A DNA stretch of 64,000 nt from Escherichia coli (GTDB lineage: Bacteria; Pseudomonadota; Gammaproteobacteria; Enterobacterales; Enterobacteriaceae): NCBI RefSeq assembly GCF_036507355.1, contig NZ_AP027877.1. One strand, 5' to 3'. Both the position numbers and the translations under genes were made by a program. Below, in pieces: positions 9,192-32,483 of the stretch (the first letter of the stretch is position 1; each line of letters starts with the position of its first letter). The notes beneath the pieces are model-generated. The model was not told the DNA's origin and made no database searches. It saw only the letters and a program-made list of their open reading frames with translations.

Positions 9192-10727
9192 ATGGCTACA
9201 TCAGTACAGACAGGTAAAGCTAAGCAGCTCACATTACTCGGCTTTTTTGCCATAACGGCATCGATGGTAATGGCTGTTTATGAATACCCTACCTTCGCAA
9301 CATCGGGCTTTTCATTAGTCTTCTTCCTGCTATTAGGCGGGATTTTATGGTTTATTCCCGTGGGACTTTGTGCTGCGGAAATGGCCACCGTCGACGGCTG
9401 GGAAGAAGGTGGTGTCTTCACCTGGGTATCAAATACTCTGGGACCGAGATGGGGATTTGCAGCGATCTCATTTGGCTATCTGCAAATCGCCATTGGTTTT
9501 ATTCCGATGCTCTATTTCGTGTTAGGGGCACTCTCCTACATCCTGAAATGGCCAGCGCTGAATGAAGACCCCATTACCAAAACTATTGCAGCACTCATCA
9601 TTCTTTGGGCGCTGGCATTAACGCAGTTTGGTGGCACGAAATACACGGCGCGAATTGCTAAAGTTGGCTTCTTCGCCGGTATCCTGTTACCTGCATTTAT
9701 TTTGATCGCATTAGCGGCTATTTATCTGCACTCCGGTGCCCCCGTTGCTATCGAAATGGATTCGAAGACCTTCTTCCCTGACTTCTCTAAAGTGGGCACC
9801 CTGGTTGTATTTGTTGCCTTCATTTTGAGTTATATGGGCGTAGAAGCTTCCGCAACTCACGTCAATGAAATGAGCAACCCCGGGCGCGACTATCCACTGG
9901 CTATGTTACTGCTGATGGTGGCGGCAATCTGCTTAAGCTCTGTTGGCGGTTTGTCTATTGCGATGGTCATTCCGGGTAATGAAATCAACCTCTCCGCAGG
10001 GGTAATGCAAACCTTTACCGTTCTGATGTCCCATGTGGCACCGGAAATTGAGTGGACGGTTCGCGTGATCTCCGCACTGCTGTTGCTGGGTGTTCTGGCG
10101 GAAATCGCCTCCTGGATTGTTGGTCCTTCTCGCGGGATGTATGTCACAGCGCAGAAAAACCTGCTGCCAGCGGCATTCGCTAAAATGAACAAAAATGGCG
10201 TACCGGTAACGCTGGTCATTTCGCAGCTGGTGATTACTTCTATCGCGTTGATCATCCTCACCAATACCGGTGGCGGTAACAACATGTCCTTCCTGATCGC
10301 ACTGGCGCTGACGGTGGTGATTTATCTGTGTGCTTATTTCATGCTGTTTATTGGCTACATTGTGTTGGTTCTTAAACATCCTGACTTAAAACGCACATTT
10401 AATATCCCTGGTGGTAAAGGGGTGAAACTGGTCGTGGCTATTGTCGGTCTGCTGACTTCAATTATGGCGTTTATTGTTTCCTTCCTGCCGCCGGATAATA
10501 TCCAGGGTGACTCTACCGATATGTATGTTGAATTACTGGTCGTTAGTTTCCTGGTGGTACTTGCCCTGCCCTTTATTCTCTATGCTGTTCATGATCGTAA
10601 AGGCAAAGCGAATACCGGCGTCACTCTGGAGCCAATCAACAGTAAGAACGCACCAAAAGGTCACTTCTTCCTGCACCCGCGTGCACGTTCACCACACTAT
10701 ATTGTGATGAATGACAAGAAACACTAA
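9192..10727 (+). CDS. gadC: glutamate:GABA antiporter
   Basis: 511-aa polytopic membrane protein (APC family) immediately downstream of gadB; sequence matches recalled GadC. Confidence 0.95.
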
Positions 10728-10752
10728 CTATGTCTGAATGGTTATAAGATAA

Positions 10753-10780
10753 GGGAGCGATAATTCATCGCTCCCTTTTT
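10753..10780 (+). terminator. rho-independent terminator of gadBC
   Basis: hairpin gggagcga-(loop)-tcgctccc followed by ttttt. Confidence 0.7.
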
Positions 10781-10857
10781 CGTGCTTGCTGTCGTATTGA
10801 CTTAATCGGGATAAGTACGAGAATGAGCGCACATCTGTTTACCGGAAACCAGCACAT

Positions 10858-12177
10858 ATGGATATCTGCTCCCGAAACAAGAAATTAACGATTAGAAGAC
10901 CAGCGATACTGGTTGCACTGGCACTTTTACTGTGTAGTTGTAAAAGCACGCCTCCAGAGTCCATGGTGACACCACCAGCGGGTTCAAAGCCACCAGCCAC
11001 GACGCAACAATCGTCACAACCGATGCGTGGCATCTGGCTGGCCACGGTGTCTCGCCTCGACTGGCCACCGGTTTCCTCGGTTAACATTAGTAACCCCACC
11101 AGCCGGGCCCGTGTACAACAACAGGCGATGATCGACAAACTGGATCATCTGCAACGTCTCGGCATAAACACGGTCTTTTTCCAGGTCAAGCCGGACGGTA
11201 CCGCCCTGTGGCCATCGAAAATTTTGCCGTGGTCCGATCTTATGACCGGTAAGATTGGTGAAAATCCGGGTTACGATCCGCTGCAATTTATGCTCGACGA
11301 AGCCCACAAGCGTGGGATGAAAGTACACGCCTGGTTTAACCCCTATCGCGTATCGGTTAATACGAAGCCCGGTACTATCAGGGAACTGAATAGCACCCTG
11401 TCTCAACAACCGGCGAGCGTCTATGTGCAACACCGCGACTGGATCAGAACGTCCGGCGATCGCTTTGTCCTCGACCCGGGCATCCCTGAGGTTCAGGACT
11501 GGATCACATCAATAGTCGCAGAAGTGGTTTCCCGCTATCCGGTAGATGGCGTGCAGTTTGACGACTATTTCTATACTGAGTCACCGGGTTCACGGCTAAA
11601 TGATAACGAAACGTACCGCAAATACGGAGGCGCATTTGCGTCAAAAGCAGACTGGCGGCGCAACAATACTCAGCAGTTAATTGCAAAAGTATCGCACACC
11701 ATTAAAAGCATTAAGCCGGGAGTCGAATTTGGCGTTAGCCCGGCAGGCGTGTGGCGTAACCGATCACACGATCCGCTCGGCTCCGATACCCGAGGCGCGG
11801 CAGCCTATGACGAATCCTACGCTGACACTCGTCGATGGGTGGAACAAGGATTGCTGGATTACATTGCTCCCCAAATTTACTGGCCGTTCTCACGGAGTGC
11901 CGCGCGTTATGACGTGTTGGCAAAATGGTGGGCGGATGTCGTTAAACCGACCAGGACCCGCCTGTATATCGGTATCGCCTTCTATAAAGTGGGTGAACCT
12001 TCAAAGATAGAGCCAGACTGGATGATTAACGGCGGCGTACCGGAACTGAAAAAGCAGCTCGATCTTAACGATGCGGTACCAGAAATTAGCGGCACCATCT
12101 TGTTCCGTGAGGACTATCTGAATAAACCGCAGACTCAACAAGCGGTCAGCTATCTGCAAAGTCGTTGGGGCAGTTGA
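10858..12177 (+). CDS. yddW: outer-membrane lipoprotein glycoside hydrolase YddW (DigH)
   Basis: 439-aa ORF with lipobox (LLLCSC) and GH-like TIM-barrel composition; position between gadC and dosC. Confidence 0.85.
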   Translation: MDICSRNKKLTIRRPAILVALALLLCSCKSTPPESMVTPPAGSKPPATTQQSSQPMRGIWLATVSRLDWPPVSSVNISNPTSRARVQQQAMIDKLDHLQRLGINTVFFQVKPDGTALWPSKILPWSDLMTGKIGENPGYDPLQFMLDEAHKRGMKVHAWFNPYRVSVNTKPGTIRELNSTLSQQPASVYVQHRDWIRTSGDRFVLDPGIPEVQDWITSIVAEVVSRYPVDGVQFDDYFYTESPGSRLNDNETYRKYGGAFASKADWRRNNTQQLIAKVSHTIKSIKPGVEFGVSPAGVWRNRSHDPLGSDTRGAAAYDESYADTRRWVEQGLLDYIAPQIYWPFSRSAARYDVLAKWWADVVKPTRTRLYIGIAFYKVGEPSKIEPDWMINGGVPELKKQLDLNDAVPEISGTILFREDYLNKPQTQQAVSYLQSRWGS

Positions 12178-17212: not shown

Positions 17213-18763
17213 ATGAAGAGATCGATATCGTTTCGTCCCACATTGCTCGCGCTCGTCCTTGCCACAACTTTCCCGGTTGCGCACGCCGCCGTACCGAAAG
17301 ATATGCTGGTGATCGGTAAAGCTGCCGATCCACAAACCCTCGACCCGGCAGTGACAATTGATAATAACGACTGGACGGTGACCTACCCGTCTTATCAGCG
17401 ACTGGTTCAGTACATAACGGACGGTGATAAAGGCTCAACCGACGTTGAAGGCGATCTGGCAAGTAGCTGGAAAGCGTCTGACGATCAAAAAGAGTGGACG
17501 TTCACCCTGAAGGACAATGCTAAATTTGCCGATGGCACACCGGTCACTGCCGAAGCAGTAAAACTCTCTTTTGAGCGGCTACTAAAAATCGGCCAGGGGC
17601 CAGCAGAAGCATTTCCCAAAGATTTAAAGATTGATGCTCCCGACGAACATACGGTGAAGTTTACCCTTAGCCAACCATTCGCACCGTTCCTCTACACGCT
17701 GGCGAATGACGGTGCATCCATTATCAATCCGGCGGTCTTAAAGGAACATGCAGCGGATGATGCTCGCGGCTTCCTCGCGCAAAATACCGCCGGTTCCGGA
17801 CCATTTATGCTGAAAAGCTGGCAAAAAGGTCAGCAATTAGTTCTGGTGCCAAATCCGCATTACCCAGGCAATAAACCGAACTTCAAACGGGTATCGGTAA
17901 AAATTATTGGTGAAAGTGCCTCCCGTCGCCTGCAGCTCTCCCGTGGCGACATTGACATTGCCGATGCGCTGCCGGTGGATCAACTCAACGCCCTGAAGCA
18001 GGAAAATAAAGTCAATGTGGCAGAGTATCCGTCACTGCGCGTCACCTATCTGTATCTGAATAACAGCAAAGCGCCTCTTAATCAGGCGGATCTGCGTCGG
18101 GCCATTTCCTGGTCTACCGATTATCAGGGCATGGTTAACGGCATTCTGAGTGGTAACGGAAAACAGATGCGCGGCCCGATTCCGGAAGGCATGTGGGGCT
18201 ACGATGCGACGGCAATGCAATACAACCATGACGAAACGAAAGCCAAAGCCGAATGGGATAAAGTGAAGAGCAAACCCACCAGCCTGACGTTTCTCTACTC
18301 CGATAACGATCCGAACTGGGAGCCTATTGCTCTGGCGACACAATCCAGTCTCAACAAGCTGGGCATCAATGTGAAGCTGGAAAAGCTGGCGAACGCCACC
18401 ATGCGCGACAGAGTGGGTAAAGGTGATTACGACATTGCGATTGGCAACTGGAGTCCGGATTTTGCCGACCCGTATATGTTTATGAATTACTGGTTTGAGT
18501 CAGACAAAAAAGGTCTGCCGGGTAACCGCTCGTTCTATGAAAACAGTGAGGTCGATAAGTTACTGCGCAATGCGCTCGCGACCACCGACCAGACGCAGCG
18601 TACCCGAGACTACCAGCAGGCACAGAAAATCGTCATTGATGACGCTGCTTATGTGTACCTGTTCCAGAAAAACTACCAACTGGCGATGAACAAAGAGGTG
18701 AAAGGCTTTGTGTTCAATCCCATGCTGGAACAGGTCTTCAATATCAATACCATGAGTAAATAA
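17213..18763 (+). CDS. ddpA: D,D-dipeptide ABC transporter periplasmic binding protein
   Basis: true start MKRSISFRPTLLALVLATTFPVAHA (signal peptide), ATG at 17213; family 5 solute-binding protein; 516 aa. Confidence 0.92.
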   Translation: MKRSISFRPTLLALVLATTFPVAHAAVPKDMLVIGKAADPQTLDPAVTIDNNDWTVTYPSYQRLVQYITDGDKGSTDVEGDLASSWKASDDQKEWTFTLKDNAKFADGTPVTAEAVKLSFERLLKIGQGPAEAFPKDLKIDAPDEHTVKFTLSQPFAPFLYTLANDGASIINPAVLKEHAADDARGFLAQNTAGSGPFMLKSWQKGQQLVLVPNPHYPGNKPNFKRVSVKIIGESASRRLQLSRGDIDIADALPVDQLNALKQENKVNVAEYPSLRVTYLYLNNSKAPLNQADLRRAISWSTDYQGMVNGILSGNGKQMRGPIPEGMWGYDATAMQYNHDETKAKAEWDKVKSKPTSLTFLYSDNDPNWEPIALATQSSLNKLGINVKLEKLANATMRDRVGKGDYDIAIGNWSPDFADPYMFMNYWFESDKKGLPGNRSFYENSEVDKLLRNALATTDQTQRTRDYQQAQKIVIDDAAYVYLFQKNYQLAMNKEVKGFVFNPMLEQVFNINTMSK

Positions 18764-20680: not shown

Positions 20681-21663
20681 CCCAACCCGTTCTGGACATT
20701 CAACAACTGCATTTGAGTTTCCCCGGTTTTAACGGTGATGTTCACGCGCTCAACAATGTGTCCTTGCAGATTAACCGCGGTGAAATTGTCGGTCTGGTGG
20801 GAGAATCCGGCTCAGGTAAATCAGTCACCGCAATGCTGATTATGCGTCTGCTACCGACGGGCAGTTATTGCGTACATCGGGGGCAGATTTCCCTGCTGGG
20901 AGACGATGTTCTTAACGCGCGGGAAAAACAGCTTCGTCAGTGGCGCGGCGCACGAGTGGCGATGATCTTTCAGGAACCGATGACCGCCCTCAATCCGACA
21001 CGTCGAATAGGTCTTCAGATGATGGACGTGATCCGCCATCATCAACCAATAAGTCGTCGGGAAGCCAGAGCTAAAGCGATTACCCTGCTGGAAGAGATGC
21101 AAATCCCGGATGCCGTGGAAGTTATGTCGCGCTATCCGTTTGAGCTTTCAGGTGGTATGCGCCAGCGGGTAATGATTGCGCTGGCATTCTCCTGCGAGCC
21201 GCAATTGATTATTGCCGACGAACCGACTACGGCGCTGGACGTCACGGTACAGTTGCAGGTACTGCGTTTGCTTAAACATAAAGCCCGCGCCAGTGGAACT
21301 GCGGTACTGTTCATCAGCCATGATATGGCCGTGGTGTCGCAACTGTGCGATAGCGTTTACGTGATGTATGCCGGAAGCGTAATTGAAAGCGGCGTGACGG
21401 CAGACGTTATCCATCATCCCCGGCATCCGTATACCATTGGTTTGCTGCAATGCGCACCAGAACATGGAGTACCACGCCAGCCATTACCCGCCATTCCAGG
21501 GACGGTACCAAACCTCACCCATTTGCCTGACGGCTGCGCTTTTCGCGATCGTTGCTATGCGGCAGGTGCACAGTGTGAAAACGTCCCGGCGCTGACAGCG
21601 TGTGGTGACAACAACCAGCGCTGCGCCTGTTGGTATCCGCAGCAGGAGGTCATAAGTGTCTGA
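20677..21663 (+). CDS. ddpD: D,D-dipeptide ABC transporter ATPase
   Basis: Walker A GESGSGKS, signature LSGGMRQR. Confidence 0.9.
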   Translation: MTQPVLDIQQLHLSFPGFNGDVHALNNVSLQINRGEIVGLVGESGSGKSVTAMLIMRLLPTGSYCVHRGQISLLGDDVLNAREKQLRQWRGARVAMIFQEPMTALNPTRRIGLQMMDVIRHHQPISRREARAKAITLLEEMQIPDAVEVMSRYPFELSGGMRQRVMIALAFSCEPQLIIADEPTTALDVTVQLQVLRLLKHKARASGTAVLFISHDMAVVSQLCDSVYVMYAGSVIESGVTADVIHHPRHPYTIGLLQCAPEHGVPRQPLPAIPGTVPNLTHLPDGCAFRDRCYAAGAQCENVPALTACGDNNQRCACWYPQQEVISV

Positions 21664-22582
21664 CACGTTATTAACGTTACGCGACGTCCATATCAATTTC
21701 CCGGTCCGTAAAAACTGGCTTGGTAAAACTACGGAACATGTTCATGCGATTAATGGTATTGATTTACAGATCCGCCGTGGTGAAACCTTAGGGATCGTCG
21801 GCGAGTCAGGCTGCGGCAAAAGCACCCTCGCACAGCTTTTAATGGGTATGCTGCAACCGAGCCACGGGCAGTACATCCGTTCTGGCTCACAACGCATTAT
21901 GCAGATGGTGTTTCAGGACCCGCTCTCTTCGCTCAATCCGCGCTTACCGGTGTGGCGCATCATCACAGAACCGCTCTGGATAGCTAAGCATAGTAGTGAA
22001 CAACAGCGGCGAGCGTTGGCAGAGGAGCTGGCTGTGCAGGTGGGTATTCGTCCGGAGTATCTCGACCGCCTGTCTCATGCGTTCTCCGGCGGGCAGCGGC
22101 AACGCATCGCCATTGCCAGAGCACTCTCTTCGCAGCCTGACGTGATTGTGCTTGATGAGCCAACCTCTGCGCTGGATATCTCCGTGCAGGCGCAGATCCT
22201 CAATTTACTGGTAACGCTACAGGAAAATCACGGGCTGACTTATGTGCTGATTTCACACAATGTCTCGGTGATATGTCATATGAGCGATCGGGTGGCGGTG
22301 ATGTATCTCGGGCAGATTGTAGAACTGGGCGACGCGCAGCAGGTGCTGACGGCACCTGCACATCCATACACCCGATTATTGCTGGATTCCCTCCCCGCCA
22401 TTAATAAACCGCTGGAGGAAGAATGGGCATTACGTAAAACGGATCTGCCGGGAAACCGCACGTTGCCGCAAGGCTGTTTTTTCCGCGAACGTTGCCCCCT
22501 TGCAACCAGCGGATGCGAAGTCCGGCAATCATTAACGACGCGGGCTGACGGACGTGAGATCCGTTGCTGGCGGGCGCTGTAG
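21656..22582 (+). CDS. ddpF: D,D-dipeptide ABC transporter ATPase
   Basis: Walker A GESGCGKS, signature FSGGQRQR; GTG start overlapping ddpD. Confidence 0.9.
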   Translation: MSDTLLTLRDVHINFPVRKNWLGKTTEHVHAINGIDLQIRRGETLGIVGESGCGKSTLAQLLMGMLQPSHGQYIRSGSQRIMQMVFQDPLSSLNPRLPVWRIITEPLWIAKHSSEQQRRALAEELAVQVGIRPEYLDRLSHAFSGGQRQRIAIARALSSQPDVIVLDEPTSALDISVQAQILNLLVTLQENHGLTYVLISHNVSVICHMSDRVAVMYLGQIVELGDAQQVLTAPAHPYTRLLLDSLPAINKPLEEEWALRKTDLPGNRTLPQGCFFRERCPLATSGCEVRQSLTTRADGREIRCWRAL

Positions 22583-22618
22583 GACGCGGCATCCGGCTAT
22601 TGCATGTCTGCGGAAACG

Positions 22619-23509
22619 TTATGCGTCATAGGTTTTTTTTAACGTTTCCATCAACGCCTGCGCCGCAGTAGAAAGCTTATGGTGTGACGAACGCAGTACG
22701 CCTACTCGTCGCTCAATCACTGGATTATCCAGTTCCAGACACACTGCGCCCAGTTCGCTCATCTGCCTGCGGCACAGCGCAGGCACAGCGCTTCCTCCCA
22801 AACCGTTTGCCACCAGCCGCCCAACCGTAACCAGTTGATGGCTTTCCAGCGCCACTTCCAGTTGCGTTCCACTTTGTGCCAACTGCTCCTCCAGCATCAA
22901 CCTGACGGCTGACGGTCGCTGGAGGGTGATAAAATCGAGCGTCAGCAAATCCCGCCAACTCACGCGTTGCCGATTTGCCAGTCGTGAATCTGCTGGAACA
23001 ATAGCGACAAACCGATCCACGCCCAGTGGGGTAAAATGCACATGGCCGCAATAGTCAGGTTCAAAGGCAATACCCATCTCCACACGCCCTTCGCTCACCA
23101 TTTCGATCACCTGCTCATTCACCACATCGTGCACGGTGACATTAATCCCTGAATAACAATCGCGGAAGGTTTTCAGCACCGGAGGCAGAACGTTGGCTGC
23201 AAATGACGGCATCGCTGCCACCGAGACTTTGCCCCGCCTGAGCGTGAATCGCTGACGCATGGCCTCCTCAGTGTTATCCCAGTCAGCCAGCAAAGGCCGT
23301 GCCATCGACAATAGCGTTTCCCCCTCCTGGGTTAATGTCACTTTTCGCGTAGTACGCAGCAGTAAAGCGCCCCCTAAGGCATCTTCCAGTCCTTTAATGG
23401 CAAGACTTAGCGCAGGCTGCGACATATTCAGCCGTTCACTGGCATGGGCAAAGTTCAGAGTGTGAGCTACCGCTAAAAACGCGCGTAACTGTTTGATGCT
23501 CATTTTCAT
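22619..23509 (-). CDS. LysR-family transcriptional regulator, divergent from catabolic operon
   Basis: 296-aa ORF; N-terminal HTH (KQLRAFLAVAHTLNFAHASERLNMSQPALSLAIKGLE) and LysR substrate-binding region. Confidence 0.85.
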   Translation of the reverse strand: MKMSIKQLRAFLAVAHTLNFAHASERLNMSQPALSLAIKGLEDALGGALLLRTTRKVTLTQEGETLLSMARPLLADWDNTEEAMRQRFTLRRGKVSVAAMPSFAANVLPPVLKTFRDCYSGINVTVHDVVNEQVIEMVSEGRVEMGIAFEPDYCGHVHFTPLGVDRFVAIVPADSRLANRQRVSWRDLLTLDFITLQRPSAVRLMLEEQLAQSGTQLEVALESHQLVTVGRLVANGLGGSAVPALCRRQMSELGAVCLELDNPVIERRVGVLRSSHHKLSTAAQALMETLKKTYDA

Positions 23510-23650
23510 CTGGCACTCCGTTAACCTACTGAATACATTTAATTAACATTATATTGATAAATAATACAAATGAATGAGTCACAAATTTAAAATTAACAAA
23601 TCATTTTTTGCCCTTAATGATGTTGAAAAGGACAACTGGAGGGCAACTGT

Positions 23651-24358
23651 ATGGCTGGGTTGGATAAACGGGTCGCTACGTATCACGAGGCGCTTGAAGG
23701 ACTTACCAATGAGATGACGATTCTGGCAGGAGGTTTTGGCCTGTGCGGCATCCCGGAGAATCTGATTGCTGAAGTTCGCCACCGTGGAGTAACCGGATTA
23801 ACGGTGGTTTCCAATAACTGTGGCGTAGATGGTTTTGGACTGGGTGTACTACTGGAAAGCCGACAGATCCGTAAAGTCGTCGCTTCTTATGTTGGCGAGA
23901 ATGCTTTGTTTGAAAAACAGGTGCTTAACGGCGAACTGGAGGCGATTCTCACACCACAAGGAACCCTGGCAGAACAACTGCGCGCAGGCGGCGCGGGTAT
24001 CCCGGCGTTCTTTACTGCCACCGGTTACGGTACTCCCGTTGCCGAAGGGAAAGAAGTCCGCGAATTCAACGGTCGCCCGTACATCATGGAACAGGCTATC
24101 ACCGGTGATTTTGCCCTGGTCAAAGGCTGGAAAGCCGACTGGTACGGCAACGTGATTTATCGTCATACCGCGCAAAACTTCAACCCACTGATGGCGGCTG
24201 CCGGAAAAATCACCGTGGTGGAAGTGGAAGAAATAGTGCCACCTGGTGAACTAGATCCTGCCGCTATCCATACCCCGGGGATTTTTGTTAATCGCGTCAT
24301 TCAGGGGCAATTTGAAAAACGCATTGAACAACGCACCCTTAGCCGCAAAGGAGCCTGA
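23651..24358 (+). CDS. 3-oxoacid CoA-transferase subunit A (AtoD/ScoA-like)
   Basis: 235-aa ORF with CoA-transferase A-subunit signatures ([18 protein letters not shown]). Confidence 0.85.
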
Positions 24359-24360
24359 CC

Positions 24361-25017
24361 ATGTTAACCCGTGAACAAATGGCGATGCGAGTCGCCCGCG
24401 AATTGCGCGATGGCTATTACGTCAATCTCGGAATTGGTATCCCGACCCTGGTGGCAAACTACATTCCTGACGGGATGGATGTGATGTTGCAGTCAGAAAA
24501 CGGTTTGCTGGGAATGGGCGCATTTCCTACGGAAGACGAACTGGACGCCGACATGATTAATGCCGGTAAACAAACCGTTACCGCGCGGAAAGGCGCGGCA
24601 ATTTTCGATTCGGCGCAATCATTCGCCATGATCCGTGGCGGTCATGTGGATCTGACTGTACTTGGCGCATTTGAAGTGGATGTGAATGGCAACATTGCCT
24701 CATGGATGATCCCCGGCAAGATGGTTAAAGGCATGGGCGGTGCCATGGATCTGGTTGCCGGTGCCGAGAATATTATTGTGGTAATGACCCACGCCTCGAA
24801 ATCCGGCGAATCCAAACTGCTTCCTGACTGTACCCTTCCGTTGACCGGCGCCGGATGCATCAAACGCGTCTTAACCGACCTTGCTCTGCTGGAAATTGCT
24901 GACGGAGTTTTCATTCTGCGCGAGCGCGCGCCGGGAATCAGCGTTGCGGAAATCATCGCCAAAACCGCCGGTAAGTTGTTTGTGCCGGAACATGTCCCGG
25001 AAATGCAATTCAACTGA
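24361..25017 (+). CDS. 3-oxoacid CoA-transferase subunit B (AtoA/ScoB-like)
   Basis: 218-aa ORF; conserved SENG motif region (MLQSENGLLGMG) of B-subunits. Confidence 0.85.
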   Translation: MLTREQMAMRVARELRDGYYVNLGIGIPTLVANYIPDGMDVMLQSENGLLGMGAFPTEDELDADMINAGKQTVTARKGAAIFDSAQSFAMIRGGHVDLTVLGAFEVDVNGNIASWMIPGKMVKGMGGAMDLVAGAENIIVVMTHASKSGESKLLPDCTLPLTGAGCIKRVLTDLALLEIADGVFILRERAPGISVAEIIAKTAGKLFVPEHVPEMQFN

Positions 25018-25026
25018 GGAATCACG

Positions 25027-26232
25027 ATGCAGGACGTTGTTATTGTTGCCGCTACGCGCACGCCGATTGGCTGTTTTCATGGCGCTCTCGCCCCACTTTC
25101 TGCGGTTGATCTCGGTGCTGCCACCATTCGTTCGTTGCTGGAGAAAACAGCACTTGCAGCAGAACAGATCGACGAAGTGATTTTTGGTCAGGTCCTGATC
25201 GCCGGAAGCGGACAAAACCCGGCACGACAATCGGCGCTCAAAGCCGGGTTAAGCCACAATACACCCGCCGTTACCATCAACCTGGTATGTGGTTCCGGTC
25301 TGAAAGCCGTACACCAGGCAGTGCAGGCGATCCGTTGCGGTGATGCACAGATAATTATCGCAGGTGGCCAGGAAAGCATGAGCAACGCGCCCTATTTTAT
25401 TGATGGCGCACGGGCAGGTTTACGCCTCGGGCATACCAGCATGAAAGACAGCGTGGTGCATGACGGACTATGGGACGCTTTCAATGATTACCACATGGGC
25501 ATTACTGCAGAAAACCTGGCGCAAAAATATGCCATCAGTCGCGAGCGACAGGACACATTCGCGCTACGTTCTCAGCAAAAAGCCGCTGCCGCAATGGAAG
25601 CCGGGCGCTTTGCAGACGAAATTACTCCGGTCAGCGTACCACAAGGTAAAAAACCACCACGCAGGGTAAATACCGACGAACAACCACGTTCCGGGACGCA
25701 ACTGGAAAAACTAGCACAACTGAAACCGGCCTTTCTTCCGGGGGCGGGAAGCGTCACCGCAGGAAATGCTTCTTCCATCAATGATGGTGCCGCCGCAGTC
25801 ATGTTAATGCGTGCCAGCAAAGCTGCCGAACTTGGCCTCCCAGTGCTGGCTCGGGTGGCTGGTTATGCCGTTTCTGGCGTCGATCCTGCCTTTATGGGCA
25901 TTGGTCCGGTCGCCGCTACCCGCGAATGTCTTAAGCGTTGCGGATGGACGCTGGAAGATATTGATCTTATTGAAGCCAACGAGGCTTTCGCAGCGCAGGC
26001 GCTGGCTGTTGGCGACGAACTGAACTGGGATTGCGACAAAGTGAATGTTAACGGCGGCGCAATCGCACTTGGGCATCCTATTGGCGCTTCCGGTTGCCGC
26101 ATTCTGGTCACTCTCATTTATGAAATGGCGCGACGTAATGCGCAAAAAGGGCTGGCGACGCTGTGCGTCGGTGGCGGTCAGGGCGTGGCGCTGACACTGG
26201 AAAGAACCACAGGAGAACACCATGCAAACTGA
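25027..26232 (+). CDS. acetyl-CoA C-acetyltransferase (thiolase II)
   Basis: 401-aa ORF; thiolase motifs ([10 protein letters not shown] active-site Cys region; C-terminal CVGGGQGVA). Confidence 0.9.
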
Positions 26233-27145
26233 ACAATTTGCGGTACTGGGCGCCGGATTGATGGGCGTGGGGATTGCCACTCATTTCGCCCGCTTTGGTC
26301 ATGATATCTGGCTGTACGATACCGAGCAGAGCCGGATTGCAGAAATCCACGTAGTTGCAGGCGGAATTCTTGATGAGCTGATTAGCTGCGAACAGTTTAC
26401 TGCCCCGGAAAAAGAGAATGTGCTTAAACGTCTGCACGGCACGACTTCTCTTGCAGACATCGCCGACTCGCAACTACTGATTGAGGCGATCCCGGAGCGA
26501 CTTGAACTAAAACACGCATTATATACCGAGCTTGAAACGCTTATTTCTCCTGAGGCCATTGTCGCCAGCAATACCAGCGGTCTGCCGCCCGATGATCTGG
26601 CCGCGAAGATGCGCTACCCGCAACGACTGCTGATCGCCCATTTCTGGCATCCGCCGCACTTCATTCCACTCGTGGAGATTATCCCCGGCAGCGTTACCGA
26701 GCCAAAGCATTTGCACTGGCTGCAACACTTGCTTGTGTCACTGCAACTGGAAGCAGTGTTGCTGGATCGCGCTGCGCCAGGATTTGTCGGCAACCGTCTG
26801 CAATTTGCACTGTTGCGTGAAGCCCTGCATATCGTAAAAAGCGGCATCGCCAGTGCAGAAGTGGTGGATCAGGTGATGCGCGCCTCGCTTGGGCGACGTT
26901 ATGCCATGGTCGGCCCGCTGGAGGCCGCCGACATGACCGGACTTTCGACGGTGCAGGATATTTGTCGCCATCTGCTCCCTGAACTAGCGACTGGCAGCGA
27001 CATGATGTCATTAGTTGCCGAAAAAGTGGAACGTGGAGACATCGGCGTACGTAGCGGTCAGGGATTTTACTGCTGGGATGAATCGCGGAAGCAGTACATC
27101 CAGCAGCGTCGGGAACATCAACTTCGCTTCGCCCTTAAACCATAA
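26222..27145 (+). CDS. 3-hydroxyacyl-CoA dehydrogenase family protein
   Basis: 307-aa ORF; N-terminal Rossmann GxGxxG (LGAGLMGVG); overlaps thiolase stop. Confidence 0.8.
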
Positions 27146-27190
27146 CTTCTCTCGCTGTACCCACTATAACAACGATATTGAGGAGTCCCG

Positions 27191-28582
27191 ATGAGTGTAT
27201 TAATCGCCCTTGCCGCGCTTGGGCTGCTAATGCTGGCAGCCTATCGCGGATACAGCGTTATCCTTTTTGCCCCCATCGCAGCATTAGGCGCTGTTCTTGT
27301 CACCGATCCGGGGGCCGTTGGCCCAGCATTTACCGGCCTGTTCATGGAAAAAATGGTCGGCTTCGTGAAATTGTACTTCCCGGTGTTTCTGCTCGGGGCC
27401 GTGTTCGGAAAACTGATTGAACTTTCAGGATTTTCTCGTTCGATTGTCGCTGCTGCAATCAACATTCTCGGCCGGCGGCATGCGATTCCGGTGATTGTGC
27501 TGGTATGTGCATTACTCACCTATGGCGGAGTGTCGCTGTTTGTGGTGGCATTTGCCGTTTATCCGTTCGCGGCTGAACTGTTCCGCCAGAGTAACATCCC
27601 AAAACGACTTATACCGGCAACGGTGGCCCTGGGGGCATTCTCTTTTACTATGGACGCTCTGCCCAGCACGCCACAAATTCAGAACATTATTCCTACCAGT
27701 TTCTTTGGCACCAACGCCTGGGCCGCGCCGTGGCTGGGGCTTATTGGTTCACTGTTTATCATTGCCGTCGGGCTTATCTATCTGGAGCGGCAGCGTCGTA
27801 AAGCGCAGGCAAAAAATGAAGGTTACGGCACAGAGTTACTTAATGAACCTGAAACACCAGATAACATCAATTTACCGAACCCACTCATTGCGATTTCACC
27901 ATTGATTCTGGTGGGGCTGTTGAACTTGTTGTTTACCTGGTGGATCCCTGTTTGGTACGGTGCGAGCCACCAACTGGAGTTGCCGGGACTTGCCGCCCCG
28001 ATTACCACAGATGTCGCCAAAATCACCGCAATCTGGGCCGTCGAAGCTGCGCTCATTGCCGGAATTTTGCTGGTAGTGATTTTTGGATATCGCAATATTC
28101 ATGGAAGACTGGCAGAAGGAAGCCGTACAGCGGTGGGCGGCGCAATTCTGGCTGCGATGAACACCGCCTCAGAATATGGCTTCGGTGCGGTTATCGCCGC
28201 CCTACCCGGTTTTCTGGTGCTCTCAAAGGCGCTGGCCGCCATTCCTGATCCATTACTCAACGAAGCCATCAGCATCACCACACTTGCCGGAATTACCGGT
28301 TCAGCGTCCGGCGGGATGAGTATTGCTCTTGCGGCTATGTCCGACACTTTTATTGCCGCTGCGCACGCTGCCAATATTCCACTGGAAGTTTTTCACCGCG
28401 TGGCATCTATGGCCAGTGGCGGCATGGATACATTGCCCCATAACGGCGCTGTGATCACCCTGCTGGCAATTACTGGGCTGAGTCACCGTCAGGCTTACGG
28501 CGGCATCTTCGCAATTACGATCATTAAAAGTCTGGCCGTGCTGTTTATCATCGGCGTGTACTACACCACCGGCATTGTCTAA
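27191..28582 (+). CDS. GntP-family permease (probable 3-hydroxybutyrate/short-chain hydroxy-acid transporter)
   Basis: 463-aa polytopic membrane ORF with GntP-like organisation; operon context. Confidence 0.7.
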   Translation: MSVLIALAALGLLMLAAYRGYSVILFAPIAALGAVLVTDPGAVGPAFTGLFMEKMVGFVKLYFPVFLLGAVFGKLIELSGFSRSIVAAAINILGRRHAIPVIVLVCALLTYGGVSLFVVAFAVYPFAAELFRQSNIPKRLIPATVALGAFSFTMDALPSTPQIQNIIPTSFFGTNAWAAPWLGLIGSLFIIAVGLIYLERQRRKAQAKNEGYGTELLNEPETPDNINLPNPLIAISPLILVGLLNLLFTWWIPVWYGASHQLELPGLAAPITTDVAKITAIWAVEAALIAGILLVVIFGYRNIHGRLAEGSRTAVGGAILAAMNTASEYGFGAVIAALPGFLVLSKALAAIPDPLLNEAISITTLAGITGSASGGMSIALAAMSDTFIAAAHAANIPLEVFHRVASMASGGMDTLPHNGAVITLLAITGLSHRQAYGGIFAITIIKSLAVLFIIGVYYTTGIV

Positions 28583-28593
28583 GGAAAATCATC

Positions 28594-29364
28594 ATGAATT
28601 TACAAGGTAAAACTGCGCTGGTGACGGGGTCCACCAGCGGTATCGGACTCGGTATTGCTCAGACACTGGCAAACGCTGGCGCGCAAGTGATCCTCAACGG
28701 CTTCGGTGATGTTGACGCGGCAATCAATGCGGTTTCTCGTATGGGTAAAACGCCTGGCTATCATGAGGCAGACCTCAGCGATGAATCGCAAATTATCAAC
28801 ATGGTGGCCTACGCATGGCGGGAATTTGGCGGTGTGGACATTCTGGTGAATAACGCCGGGATCCAGTATGTCTCCCCGGTTGAATCTTTCCCTGTAGAAA
28901 AATGGAACGCCATTATCGCTATCAATCTCTCTTCTGTCTTTCACACCACGCGTCTGGCACTGCCAGAAATGCGCACTCGTAACTGGGGTCGGATCATTAA
29001 CATTGCCTCTGTGCATGGGCTGGTAGCGTCGAAAGACAAATCAGCTTATGTTGCGGCAAAACATGGCGTGGTGGGACTCACAAAGACCATTGCTCTGGAA
29101 ACTGCGCAGACCGGTATTACCTGCAACGCGCTCTGCCCTGGCTGGGTGCTGACGCCGCTGGTACAACAGCAGATTGATAAGCGCATTGCGCAAGGCGAAG
29201 ATGCGGAAAGCGCGCGTGACGCCTTACTGGCAGAAAAACAGCCTTCTCGTGAATTTGTGACTCCGCAACAACTGGGTGAACTGGCGCTGTTTCTCTGTTC
29301 GGATGCGGCAGCACAAGTGCGTGGGGTGGCGTGGAATATGGATGGCGGTTGGGTAGCGCAGTAA
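28594..29364 (+). CDS. 3-hydroxybutyrate dehydrogenase (SDR family)
   Basis: 256-aa ORF; SDR cofactor motif TGSTSGIG and YxxxK catalytic region; strong resemblance to BdhA-type enzymes. Confidence 0.85.
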   Translation: MNLQGKTALVTGSTSGIGLGIAQTLANAGAQVILNGFGDVDAAINAVSRMGKTPGYHEADLSDESQIINMVAYAWREFGGVDILVNNAGIQYVSPVESFPVEKWNAIIAINLSSVFHTTRLALPEMRTRNWGRIINIASVHGLVASKDKSAYVAAKHGVVGLTKTIALETAQTGITCNALCPGWVLTPLVQQQIDKRIAQGEDAESARDALLAEKQPSREFVTPQQLGELALFLCSDAAAQVRGVAWNMDGGWVAQ

Positions 29365-29370
29365 GTGTTC

Positions 29371-29392
29371 GCCGGATGACGCGTCATCCGGC
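29371..29392. terminator. 22-bp perfect palindrome (REP-like), bidirectional terminator between the dehydrogenase gene and osmC
   Basis: gccggatgacg|cgtcatccggc between convergent genes. Confidence 0.5.
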
Positions 29393-29398
29393 AATGCT

Positions 29399-29830
29399 TT
29401 ACGATTTCAACTGGTAATCCAGCGTAATTTCCGCTTTCAGTACCTGAGAGACCGGGCATCCTGCTTTTGCTTTCTGGATGATGCCGTCAAAGGTAGAGGC
29501 ATCAATACCCGGCACCGCAACTTCACTCTTCAGTGCGATTTTCGTAATCGCAAAACCGGCATCCACTTTATCCAGCGACACATCGGCGGTGGTATCAATC
29601 GATGTTGGCGTGAATCCCGCTTCCCCCAGCATTAATGAAAGCGCCATTGAGAAACATGCGGCATGCGCTGCGCCAATCAGTTCTTCAGGGTTGGTTCCTT
29701 TTTCGCCTTCAAAACGCGTGTTAAATCCATACGGCTGTTGGTTCAGCACGCCACTCTCGGTGGATACTGTTCCCTTCCCGCGTTTGATATCGCCTTCCCA
29801 GTGTGCCTGACCTTTCTTATGGATTGTCAT
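29399..29830 (-). CDS. osmC: osmotically inducible peroxiredoxin OsmC
   Basis: 143-aa ORF matching recalled OsmC (MTIHKKGQAHWEGDIKRGKG...). Confidence 0.95.
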   Translation of the reverse strand: MTIHKKGQAHWEGDIKRGKGTVSTESGVLNQQPYGFNTRFEGEKGTNPEELIGAAHAACFSMALSLMLGEAGFTPTSIDTTADVSLDKVDAGFAITKIALKSEVAVPGIDASTFDGIIQKAKAGCPVSQVLKAEITLDYQLKS

Positions 29831-30174
29831 TGTTGCTCTCCTGTGGGCTTAAAAAGGAAATTATAGACTACGTGAGAAACCGCACGAGGATAAGCAGGAT
29901 ATTCCGAATAAAATACGGCGAAAATATTACTTCTGCACTTAAATTAAATTCCCACAATAGATAACCGGAAATATATATCTCAAGAGAGATTGCATCAATA
30001 TTAATCAACTCATCACAATAATAATACCTATCAATATCATGGGTTTAAAATATAAAAATCATCAACCAGGACTAATCTTAACAACGAAGCGGCAAATATT
30101 TGCCATGCTGAATGTGCTTTATAAATCTGCGATCCGTAGCAGACACTATAAATACACAGACACGGAGAATCGCT

Positions 30175-30390
30175 ATGTTTACTTATTATCAGGCAGAAAA
30201 TTCAACAGCAGAACCCGCTCTGGTTAATGCCATTGAGCAAGGCCTTCGGGCAGAGCACGGTGTTGTCACTGAAGATGACATTCTCATGGAGCTGACCAAA
30301 TGGGTGGAAGCTTCTGATAACGACATCCTCAGTGATATCTACCAGCAAACGATCAATTATGTGGTCAGTGGCCAGCACCCTACGCTTTAA
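30175..30390 (+). CDS. bdm: biofilm-dependent modulation protein Bdm
   Basis: 71-aa protein MFTYYQAENSTAEPALVNAIEQGL...; SD ggag then ATG at 30175; ORF-track start at 30112 is an upstream extension. Confidence 0.85.
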   Translation: MFTYYQAENSTAEPALVNAIEQGLRAEHGVVTEDDILMELTKWVEASDNDILSDIYQQTINYVVSGQHPTL

Positions 30391-30491
30391 GGTGCTATGC
30401 TTGATCGGCAACCTAATTTAGGGGTTTAGCACGTGTTTCTTCGCTACGGCGATGTTGTCCTTAAAACTAGCAACAGGATTGAGGAGTTAAA

Positions 30492-30629
30492 ATGAAATCG
30501 AACCGTCAGGCACGTCATATTCTTGGACTGGACCATAAAATTTCTAACCAGCGCAAAATAGTTACCGAAGGTGACAAATCCAGCGTGGTAAATAACCCAA
30601 CAGGCAGAAAACGCCCCGCTGAAAAGTAA
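30492..30629 (+). CDS. sra: stationary-phase ribosome-associated protein Sra (RpsV)
   Basis: 45-aa [48 protein letters not shown] with SD gaggag upstream; below the 60-aa cut-off of the ORF track. Confidence 0.85.
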
Positions 30630-30785
30630 TTCATAACCATCAGTCCTCAATGACGATTAAACACCATTGCCTGCGCAATGGTGTTTTTGTTTTTATCTGC
30701 TTTATACTTGGGGCCGACGCCCTGGCGGTAAAGCAAAGACGATAAAAGCGTGCCAGGGATGGATATTCAAAAAAGAGTGAGTGAC

Positions 30786-32483
30786 ATGGAACCAAAAACA
30801 AAAAAACAGCGTTCGCTTTATATCCCTTACGCTGGCCCTGTACTGCTGGAATTTCCGTTGTTGAATAAAGGCAGTGCCTTCAGCATGGAAGAACGCCGTA
30901 ACTTCAACCTGCTGGGGTTACTGCCGGAAGTGGTCGAAACCATCGAAGAACAAGCGGAACGAGCATGGATCCAGTATCAGGGATTCAAAACCGAAATCGA
31001 CAAACACATCTACCTGCGTAACATCCAGGACACTAACGAAACCCTCTTCTACCGTCTGGTAAACAATCATCTTGATGAGATGATGCCTGTTATTTATACC
31101 CCAACCGTCGGCGCAGCCTGTGAGCGTTTTTCTGAGATCTACCGCCGTTCACGCGGCGTGTTTATCTCTTACCAGAACCGGCACAATATGGACGATATTC
31201 TGCAAAACGTACCAAACCATAATATCAAAGTGATTGTGGTGACTGACGGTGAACGTATTCTGGGGCTTGGTGACCAGGGCATCGGCGGGATGGGCATTCC
31301 GATCGGTAAACTTTCGCTCTATACCGCCTGTGGCGGCATCAGCCCGGCGTATACCCTTCCGGTGGTGCTGGATGTCGGAACGAACAACCAACAGTTGCTT
31401 AACGATCCGCTGTATATGGGCTGGCGTAATCCGCGTATCACTGACGACGAATACTATGAATTCGTTGATGAATTTATCCAGGCTGTGAAACAACGCTGGC
31501 CGGACGTGCTGTTGCAGTTTGAAGACTTTGCTCAAAAAAATGCGATGCCGTTACTTAACCGCTATCGCAATGAAATTTGTTCTTTTAACGATGACATTCA
31601 GGGCACTGCGGCAGTAACAGTCGGCACACTGATCGCAGCCAGCCGCGCAGCAGGTGGTCAGTTAAGCGAGAAAAAAATCGTCTTCCTTGGCGCAGGTTCA
31701 GCGGGATGCGGCATTGCCGAAATGATCATCGCCCAGACTCAGCGTGAAGGATTAAGCGAGGAAGCGGCGCGGCAGAAAGTCTTTATGGTTGATCGCTTTG
31801 GCCTGCTGACCGACAAGATGCCGAACCTGCTGCCTTTCCAGACTAAACTGGTGCAGAAGCGCGAAAACCTCAGTGACTGGGATACCGACAGCGATGTGCT
31901 GTCACTGCTGGATGTGGTGCGCAATGTAAAACCAGATATTCTGATTGGCGTCTCAGGACAGACCGGGCTGTTTACGGAAGAGATCATCCGTGAGATGCAT
32001 AAACACTGTCCGCGTCCGATCGTGATGCCGCTGTCTAACCCGACGTCACGCGTGGAAGCCACACCGCAGGACATTATCGCCTGGACCGAAGGTAACGCGC
32101 TGGTCGCCACGGGCAGCCCGTTTAATCCAGTGGTATGGAAAGATAAAATCTACCCTATCGCCCAGTGTAACAACGCCTTTATTTTCCCGGGCATCGGCCT
32201 GGGTGTTATTGCTTCCGGCGCGTCACGTATCACCGATGAGATGCTGATGTCGGCAAGTGAAACGCTTGCACAGTATTCGCCGCTGGTCCTGAACGGCGAA
32301 GGTCTGGTACTACCGGAACTAAAAGATATTCAGAAAGTCTCCCGCGCAATTGCGTTTGCGGTTGGCAAAATGGCGCAGCAGCAAGGCGTGGCGGTGAAAA
32401 CGTCTGCCGAAGCCCTGCAACAGGCCATTGACGATAATTTCTGGCAAGCCGAATACCGCGACTACCGCCGTACCTCCATCTAA
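30786..32483 (+). CDS. maeA: NAD-dependent malic enzyme
   Basis: 565-aa protein beginning [23 protein letters not shown]...; malic enzyme signature region. Confidence 0.95.

Follow-up and report, generated by a model that had tools for sequence, protein, structure and literature searches.

In Escherichia coli K-12 MG1655 the core genes ddpF and osmC are neighbours, 55 bp apart, whereas in a stretch of 64,000 nucleotides from another E. coli genome (contig NZ_AP027877.1 of assembly GCF_036507355.1; hereafter the window) a 6.8-kb segment stands between them. The segment comprises six co-directional genes, encoding the A and B subunits of a 3-oxoacid CoA-transferase (scoA and scoB), an acetoacetyl-CoA thiolase, a 3HCDH-family dehydrogenase, a permease and a 3-hydroxybutyrate dehydrogenase (bdh), together with a divergent gene for a LysR-type regulator. 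The locus raises two questions, namely whether the window strain has gained these genes or K-12 has lost them, and what the genes do for the strains that carry them. The evidence assembled here makes it quite probable that the cluster is an ordinary LysR-controlled catabolic operon for C4 ketone bodies, an old resident of its site that was deleted once and has been exchanged by recombination. A first-pass annotation of the window had already described the gene set, noted the adjacency of ddpF and osmC in K-12 and pointed out a perfect 22-bp palindrome at the end of the cluster. The list of open reading frames (ORFs) and the NCBIfam and Pfam profile searches by which protein families were assigned agree with the first of these statements, the MG1655 genome bears out the second, and the palindrome lies exactly at positions 29371-29392. 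What the present analysis adds is the reading of K-12 as a loss, the movement of the cluster by recombination, and the recognition that the labels of the 3HCDH-family enzyme and the permease convey more certainty about their roles than is warranted.

Distribution and ancestry of the cluster

The segment was found in 231 of 5,426 complete E. coli genomes (4.3%), on the chromosome in every case, and 226 of the 231 copies were at least 99% identical to the window copy. A contiguous empty junction of the K-12 type was present in 4,057 of the complete genomes, and in most of the remaining genomes, neither occupied nor of the K-12 type, only the osmC half matched. Comparison of the ddpF-osmC interval thus bears out the strain variability that the first-pass annotation had proposed. 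The cluster is carried by the O145:H28 Shiga-toxin lineage, and the site is empty in the O157:H7 genome that was examined; RefSeq annotation already names each of the cluster genes in all 231 carrier genomes. The best match to a 24-kb part of the window (positions 12000-36000) among complete E. coli genomes was only 98.9%, in O145:H28 strains, which indicates that the source lineage of the window has no representative among the 5,426 complete genomes.

A plasmid origin was considered and rejected, since no plasmid copy of the cluster was detected in the complete E. coli genomes and the matches in a plasmid collection were distant (at most about 73% identical), several of them being mislabelled chromosomes or megaplasmids. 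One entry, CP125156.1, is listed in PLSDB as a Klebsiella pneumoniae plasmid but is 5.37 Mb long and evidently a chromosome, so that the matches in the plasmid collection do not show a plasmid-borne cluster.

The age of the cluster at this site was examined by scanning the 3HCDH-family protein against one genome per GTDB species, which returned 33 loci. More than 20 Citrobacter genomes (including C. youngae, C. portucalensis, C. werkmanii, C. amalonaticus, C. gillenii, C. braakii and several further species) have ddpD and ddpF, then lysR, scoA, scoB, thiolase, 3HCDH, permease and bdh, then osmC and maeA, in that order. No ddp genes were detected at the locus of C. sedlakii, where osmC and maeA nevertheless come after the cluster. 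The placement between ddpF and osmC also occurs in the representatives of two other Escherichia species, Escherichia sp. E1V33 and SCPM-O-B-8794, the latter labelled E. coli but serving in GTDB as the representative of a separate species. In Klebsiella, Raoultella, Serratia, Enterobacter and Pluralibacter, the same seven genes are found at other sites. Because the cluster is syntenic in Citrobacter and in other Escherichia, K-12 is better read as a derived, deleted state than the window strain as an insertion.

The divergence of the cluster resembles that of its surroundings in these wider comparisons. Between the window and SCPM-O-B-8794, the synonymous divergence (dS) was 0.25-0.44 in the cluster and 0.36-0.55 in the flanks, while nucleotide identity between the window and Citrobacter was 72-82% in the cluster and 71-85% in the flanks, with dS saturated. 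The GC content of the cluster (0.46-0.57) has a flat profile and also resembles the flanks, and no integrase, transposase or tRNA was found among the ORFs and features at the cluster. Taken with the synteny, these patterns argue that the cluster has long resided between ddpF and osmC in the Escherichia/Citrobacter lineage and is not a mobile island. The resident genes also appear to be in use. All seven are under purifying selection, with a ratio of nonsynonymous to synonymous divergence (dN/dS) of about 0.03-0.12 against SCPM-O-B-8794, and all seven ORFs are intact, full length and in agreement with the RefSeq models. It is scarcely credible, given these reading frames, this selection and the conservation of the promoter blocks described below, that the cluster is a decaying relic without function in the window strain, even though most E. 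coli have lost it and in one strain a second deletion reaches from the permease gene to maeA.

Empty sites and probable exchange between lineages

The right-hand end of the cluster is marked by the palindrome GCCGGATGACGCGTCATCCGGC, a GC-rich hairpin between the convergent genes bdh and osmC. It is unique in the window even when three mismatches are allowed, and by chance a 64-kb sequence would contain about 0.015 perfect palindromes of 22 bp (64,000 x 4^-11). Folding is predicted to be stable on both strands, at -23 and -21 kcal/mol (z-scores -2.8 and -3.1, respectively), and a hairpin of the GCCGGAT...ATCCGGC type lies between bdh and osmC in every occupied Escherichia and Citrobacter locus. 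The palindrome is a conserved hairpin kept between convergent genes rather than the boundary of an element, and it may serve as a weak bidirectional terminator or as a stabiliser of mRNA 3' ends. An intrinsic (rho-independent) terminator was considered and rejected; the hairpin is stable, but a U-tract after it is absent on both strands and a terminator consensus scan did not report it. An Rfam scan of positions 21000-31000 matched no family.

The palindrome matters for the history of the site, as the empty sites contain part of it. In K-12, in O157:H7 and in the B2 strain APEC O18, the empty site reads ...ACGCATCAGGCATTCA(C/T)GCGCC joined to TGACGCGTCATCCGGCAA(T/C)GCT, after which comes the stop codon of osmC. 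Of the palindrome's 22 nucleotides these sites keep just the 16 nearest osmC, fused to other sequence, and carriers and K-12 do not differ in the half of the hairpin that faces osmC. On the other side of the cluster, the stop codons of ddpF and lysR are separated by a 36-bp spacer (22583-22618). E. coli A30 and Escherichia sp. E1V33 have exactly the window's version of this spacer, to which the K-12 spacer bears a loose resemblance in its ddpF-proximal part. One junction common to phylogroups A, E and B2 implies either a single old deletion or one deletion allele that has spread, and the empty sites as a group point to one old deletion that would have removed the cluster from most E. coli.

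The opposite polarity, in which K-12 has the ancestral empty state and the cluster is a genomic island received recently from Klebsiella, Pseudomonas or some other unrelated donor, is very improbable. The rarity of the cluster in E. coli (4.3%), its low diversity among carriers and the presence of similar clusters elsewhere in Klebsiella, Raoultella and Serratia chromosomes and on large replicons would all be expected of such an island. However, the same site and gene order recur in many Citrobacter and in two other Escherichia species with flank-like divergence, nucleotide identity to the Klebsiella copy is only about 73%, integrase, transposase, tRNA and GC shift are all missing, and the hairpin is truncated in the empty sites and complete only in the occupied ones. 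The sole flanking repeat, D3 (27 nucleotides, 74% identical; 22512-22538 and 29378-29404), has one copy inside ddpF and cannot produce the K-12 junction; it was therefore treated as a chance similarity. A mobile genomic island was rejected on these grounds, that is, for want of integrase, tRNA, att-type repeats or GC deviation and because of the synteny in Citrobacter.

An old residence does not by itself account for the pattern within E. coli, where the cluster is less diverse than the genes around it. Seven carriers from different backgrounds were compared (the window, A30, O145:NM, EC1515, JNEC-KY204, E300082 and BEC1), and mean divergence among them was 0.13-0.89% in the cluster and 0.7-2.8% in the flanks. 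No other gene nearby varies as much among these carriers as ddpF, which differs by up to 4.75% of nucleotides (dS 0.12-0.15). A similar contrast was observed between the window and Escherichia sp. E1V33, with dS of 0.03-0.10 in the cluster, 0.35-0.43 in ddpC, ddpD and osmC, and 0.17 in ddpF. The lower diversity of the cluster indicates that the E. coli copies share a more recent ancestor than their flanks do, and this, together with the near-identity to E1V33, argues that homologous recombination moved the cluster between lineages. The breakpoints would lie in ddpF and at the hairpin, and the 3' part of ddpF looks like a recombination breakpoint zone. The allele of SCPM-O-B-8794 was found in no complete E. 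coli genome, the E. coli copies being 90-95% identical to it. The carriers, about 4% of E. coli, thus seem to hold a single low-diversity haplotype, and one haplotype appears to have crossed a species boundary by homologous recombination.

It is also conceivable that the carriers never lost the cluster and that the presence and absence of the genes is an ancestral polymorphism, maintained for a long time without reintroduction by recombination. The ancestral, syntenic position of the site and the identity of the osmC-proximal hairpin half in carriers and K-12 are in keeping with this explanation. A polymorphism older than the phylogroups would be expected to show no less diversity than its flanks, however, whereas the cluster is 2-10 times less diverse, and its near-identity to the copy of another species (dS 0.03-0.10 against 0.35-0.43 in the flanks) and its presence in O145:H28 while the examined O157:H7 genome is empty are likewise difficult to reconcile with uninterrupted retention. 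Polymorphism without exchange is thus improbable, and the preferred reading remains that of an old resident, deleted once and exchanged by recombination.

The neighbourhood has also changed in other ways. In APEC O18 (locus 5853-6048) the whole ddpXABCDF operon is missing, so that dosP abuts osmC; despite the loss of ddp, this strain keeps the osmC-proximal junction of K-12 and O157:H7. The strain BEC1-S17-ESBL-07 (locus 9609-10394) has undergone an independent further deletion, running from inside the permease gene to maeA, so that bdh, osmC, bdm, sra and maeA are gone and only part of the cluster is left. In addition, a RelE/ParE toxin gene by yddM (higA), downstream of adhP, is present in A30 (17231-17793) and APEC O18 (10458-11020) and absent from the same site in O145:NM, EC1515, JNEC-KY204 and E300082.

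The predicted pathway and its control

The first-pass annotation held that the cluster encodes a complete route from 3-hydroxybutyrate to acetyl-CoA, and the profile searches agree, the steps being predicted from the family membership of the enzymes and the permease. After import of 3-hydroxybutyrate by the permease, the first reaction would be the conversion of (R)-3-hydroxybutyrate and NAD+ to acetoacetate by Bdh, a member of the short-chain dehydrogenase/reductase family encoded, like the other five co-directional genes, on the plus strand (28594-29364). Bdh passes the curated cut-offs of NF009093 (369.9 against 258) and TIGR01963 (342.1 against 307), and among PDB sequences it scores 486 bits against the 3-hydroxybutyrate dehydrogenase 5yss and 388 bits against the Pseudomonas putida enzyme 2q2q. 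A two-subunit class I CoA-transferase would then convert acetoacetate to acetoacetyl-CoA. Its subunit A (ScoA/PcaI type, 23651-24358) scores 244.8 against a cut-off of 128.5 for TIGR02429 and stays below the AtoD equivalog (198.9 against 315), and its subunit B (ScoB/PcaJ type, 24361-25017) scores 325.7 against 243.55 for TIGR02428 and keeps the SENG catalytic-glutamate motif in alignment with AtoA. As the transferase is of the ScoAB type, the CoA donor is probably succinyl-CoA. Finally, the thiolase (25027-26232) would cleave acetoacetyl-CoA to two acetyl-CoA; it clears TIGR01930 (499.7 against 240.55), falls just under the narrower NF004206 (674.4 against 688) and keeps the active-site Cys/His/Cys motifs, including LCVGGGQG, relative to AtoB. 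The gaps among the six genes are 2, 9, -11, 45 and 11 bp, the negative value being an 11-bp overlap of the start of the 3HCDH gene with the end of the thiolase gene, and they fit a single operon read as one transcription unit.

The same enzymes might in principle serve another substrate or run in another direction, for example in the use of butyrate or other short-chain fatty acids, in the disposal of acetoacetate from a different pathway (as with the dhc genes of carnitine catabolism in Pseudomonas aeruginosa), or in the reductive formation and export of 3-hydroxybutyrate. In favour of these alternatives, AtoDA and AtoB, the paralogues of the CoA-transferase and the thiolase, use short-chain acids as substrates, the cluster includes an enzyme of the 3HCDH family, and each of the reactions is reversible. 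On the other hand, genes for an acyl-CoA dehydrogenase, a crotonase, a carnitine dehydrogenase or a beta-keto-acid cleavage enzyme are missing from the cluster, Bdh passes the cut-offs for 3-hydroxybutyrate dehydrogenases, and many bacteria keep permease and bdh together as a pair. These alternatives are therefore highly unlikely in comparison with the catabolism of C4 ketone bodies.

The gene whose place in this pathway is least obvious is that of the 3HCDH-family, NAD-dependent dehydrogenase (26222-27145). The protein contains both PF02737 (158 bits) and PF00725 (68.6 bits), and its NTS, H(F)W, LVE and GNR motifs align with the Ser/His/Glu/Asn catalytic positions of the PDB entries 4om8 and 4kug. 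The earlier label of 3-hydroxyacyl-CoA dehydrogenase consequently stands at the level of the family, but the enzyme lies outside the main route, and its best characterised relative, FHMPC dehydrogenase, acts on a free acid and not on a CoA ester. Among PDB sequences, it scores 170 bits against FHMPC dehydrogenase (4om8), 139 bits against Hbd (4kug) and 113-117 bits against lambda-crystallin/L-gulonate 3-dehydrogenase; the Hbd model NF004474 gives 180.9 against a cut-off of 408, and the L-carnitine dehydrogenase models give 112-142, far below their cut-offs. The motifs H-x3-PPH-x-IP and NR-x3-ALLREA are present in the cluster enzyme and in 4om8 but not in Hbd. The free-acid members of the family (4om8, lambda-crystallin and L-carnitine dehydrogenase) thus have the two-domain fold and the Ser/His/Glu/Asn positions in common with the cluster enzyme, whereas the latter falls far below their equivalog cut-offs, and the CoA-ester type represented by Hbd scores only slightly lower.

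The route from 3-hydroxybutyrate to two acetyl-CoA is complete without this enzyme and so does not need its gene, which is absent from the versions of the cluster in Pseudomonas silvicola, Pantoea and Azospirillum. Gene context is uninformative on its substrate because the best 120 homologues are all enterobacterial. The reading that we favour, with some reservation, is that the enzyme gives the (S)-enantiomer access to the pathway; its substrate would then be either (S)-3-hydroxybutyrate as the free acid or the (S)-3-hydroxybutyryl-CoA that the CoA-transferase would form. Enzymes of EC 1.1.1.45 (L-gulonate 3-dehydrogenase) also oxidise other L-3-hydroxyacids, and a 3HCDH-family (S)-3-hydroxybutyrate dehydrogenase has reportedly been described in anaerobes, in Applied and Environmental Microbiology in 2022. 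A bolder combination of ideas can be put forward only tentatively and is rather unlikely as a whole, namely that the enzyme is specifically a free L-(S)-3-hydroxybutyrate dehydrogenase, so that the operon uses both enantiomers, and that the E. coli haplotype is at the same time a recent introgression from a cryptic Escherichia lineage, restoring a lost ketone-body trait in particular niches (for example in cattle-associated O145:H28 Shiga-toxin strains).

The permease (463 amino acids, 27191-28582) is a divergent member of the GntP family and IT superfamily and a putative importer of 3-hydroxybutyrate, a substrate that the gene context suggests. It matched neither PF02447 nor any other Pfam-A or NCBIfam profile, even at E<=10, and no PDB sequence. 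However, 36 of 48 homologues, 31-70% identical to it, match PF02447 (GntP_permease; best E-value 1.1e-17), and its AlphaFold2 model (predicted local distance difference test score, pLDDT, 92.5) is matched in Foldseek by MleN, the TRAP transporter SiaQM, VcINDY and YdaH with E-values of 1e-8 to 1e-4. The label of GntP-family permease given in the first-pass annotation, which lacks a direct profile match, is therefore acceptable as a distant membership that rests on transitive homology and fold, and the missing match reflects a gap in the profile libraries and not a new fold. The E. coli protein and its counterparts in Pseudomonas or Pantoea share 81-84% identity, and the permease-bdh pair is kept together in many bacteria.

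Control of the operon would be exerted by the divergent LysR-type protein (22619-23509, minus strand; PF00126 HTH_1 73 bits, PF03466 LysR_substrate 141.9 bits), which reached no equivalog cut-off in NCBIfam. Between its gene and scoA lies an AT-rich control region of 141 bp (23510-23650), in which a promoter scan identified a promoter-like site with a -35 element TTAACA (23593-23598), a 17-bp spacer and a -10 element AATGAT (23616-23621), followed by a ribosome-binding site GGAGG (23638-23642) located 8 nucleotides ahead of the scoA ATG. A footprint of 14 species, from E. coli to Pseudomonas, keeps the blocks GTTAAC, TTAACA, ATTRATAA, TCACAAATT, AAAATTAACAAATCA and AATGAT. The blocks containing TTAAC are candidate LysR sites, and the conserved blocks together fit a LysR recognition site and an activation site overlapping the -35 element, although no clean T-N11-A dyad could be defined by eye in the 141-bp region. 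Presumably the LysR protein responds to 3-hydroxybutyrate or acetoacetate by activating this conserved promoter.

Of the two flanking genes, ddpF on the left (21656-22582, plus strand; ABC_tran and oligo_HPY) encodes a protein 96% identical to that of K-12, and osmC on the right (29399-29830, minus strand; TIGR03562, 204 bits) encodes one 100% identical to that of K-12.

Several observations weigh against the overall interpretation of a resident ketone-body operon, deleted once and exchanged by recombination. With regard to its history, the common scar could also have spread by recombination instead of descent, vertical descent in Citrobacter rests on synteny and similar identity only because dS is saturated there, and the comparison with E1V33 does not settle the direction of the exchange. 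In addition, one complete genome labelled E. coli has a cluster copy 80-90% identical to both the window and the SCPM-O-B-8794 allele, which suggests a third, divergent allele of the cluster. With regard to function, the assignments of the CoA donor, of the LysR effector and of a substrate to the permease are inferences, the 3HCDH-family protein falls under every NCBIfam equivalog cut-off (the best being FHMPC dehydrogenase, 220 against 500), and a literature search found no paper on the E. coli cluster, '3SHBDH' or the permease.

Related systems and significance of the trait

The closest relatives of the E. coli cluster are those of Citrobacter, Klebsiella pneumoniae, Raoultella, Serratia marcescens and Enterobacter, which have the identical order (lysR, divergent from scoA-scoB-thiolase-3HCDH-permease-bdh) with 62-96% protein identity. 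The Citrobacter cluster occupies the same chromosomal position between ddpF and osmC as in the window, whereas that of Klebsiella and Raoultella lies elsewhere, by the bud (acetoin/butanediol) genes. In Klebsiella and Raoultella the cluster looks like a common trait of the species, while in E. coli it is rare. A literature search found no genetic characterisation of any orthologous enterobacterial cluster; it is on record that most clones of K. pneumoniae use DL-beta-hydroxybutyrate (PMC2656620).

In P. putida, the genes concerned are hbdH (PP_3073), atoAB (PP_3122/3123) and a PP_2047-2051 operon controlled by the LysR-type PP_2046; this operon is induced by (R)-3-hydroxybutyrate and includes a 3-hydroxyacyl-CoA dehydrogenase, and its deletion had no effect on growth on (R)-3-hydroxybutyrate (PMC13390443). 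The functions are thus split over several loci in P. putida, unlike the single cluster of E. coli. The cluster of Pseudomonas silvicola is closer, with about 70% nucleotide identity and promoter blocks in common, but its 3HCDH gene is missing. In P. aeruginosa, the region PA1998-PA2005 presumably holds the 3-hydroxybutyrate/acetoacetate genes, and bdhA is said to be controlled by a sigma-54 enhancer-binding protein.

The most similar system in K-12 itself is ato (atoSC-atoDAEB), which likewise has a class I two-subunit CoA-transferase followed by a thiolase and has the SENG motif in common with the cluster. However, the A subunit, B subunit and thiolase of the cluster are only 39%, 50% and 57% identical to AtoD, AtoA and AtoB, respectively, the permease has no similarity to AtoE, and the regulator is of the LysR type and not the AtoSC two-component system. 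In addition, ato lacks a 3-hydroxybutyrate dehydrogenase and so cannot start from 3-hydroxybutyrate. The possibility that the cluster is an orthologue of ato was rejected on the basis of the low identities, the unmatched AtoD equivalog, the lack of likeness to AtoE and the LysR regulator.

Nothing in these results would surprise a specialist, as the operon is ordinary and its evolutionary interest modest. The locus does, however, provide a clean example of what looks like a strain-specific island but would really be an ancestral segment, deleted once with a scar and shuffled back by homologous recombination. The cluster also adds a clear and testable strain-specific carbon-source trait to E. 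coli. Since 3-hydroxybutyrate is both a ketone body of the host and the monomer released from bacterial polyhydroxybutyrate (PHB), this trait could matter for the fitness of carriers in the gut or in the environment and for strain-resolved metabolic models.

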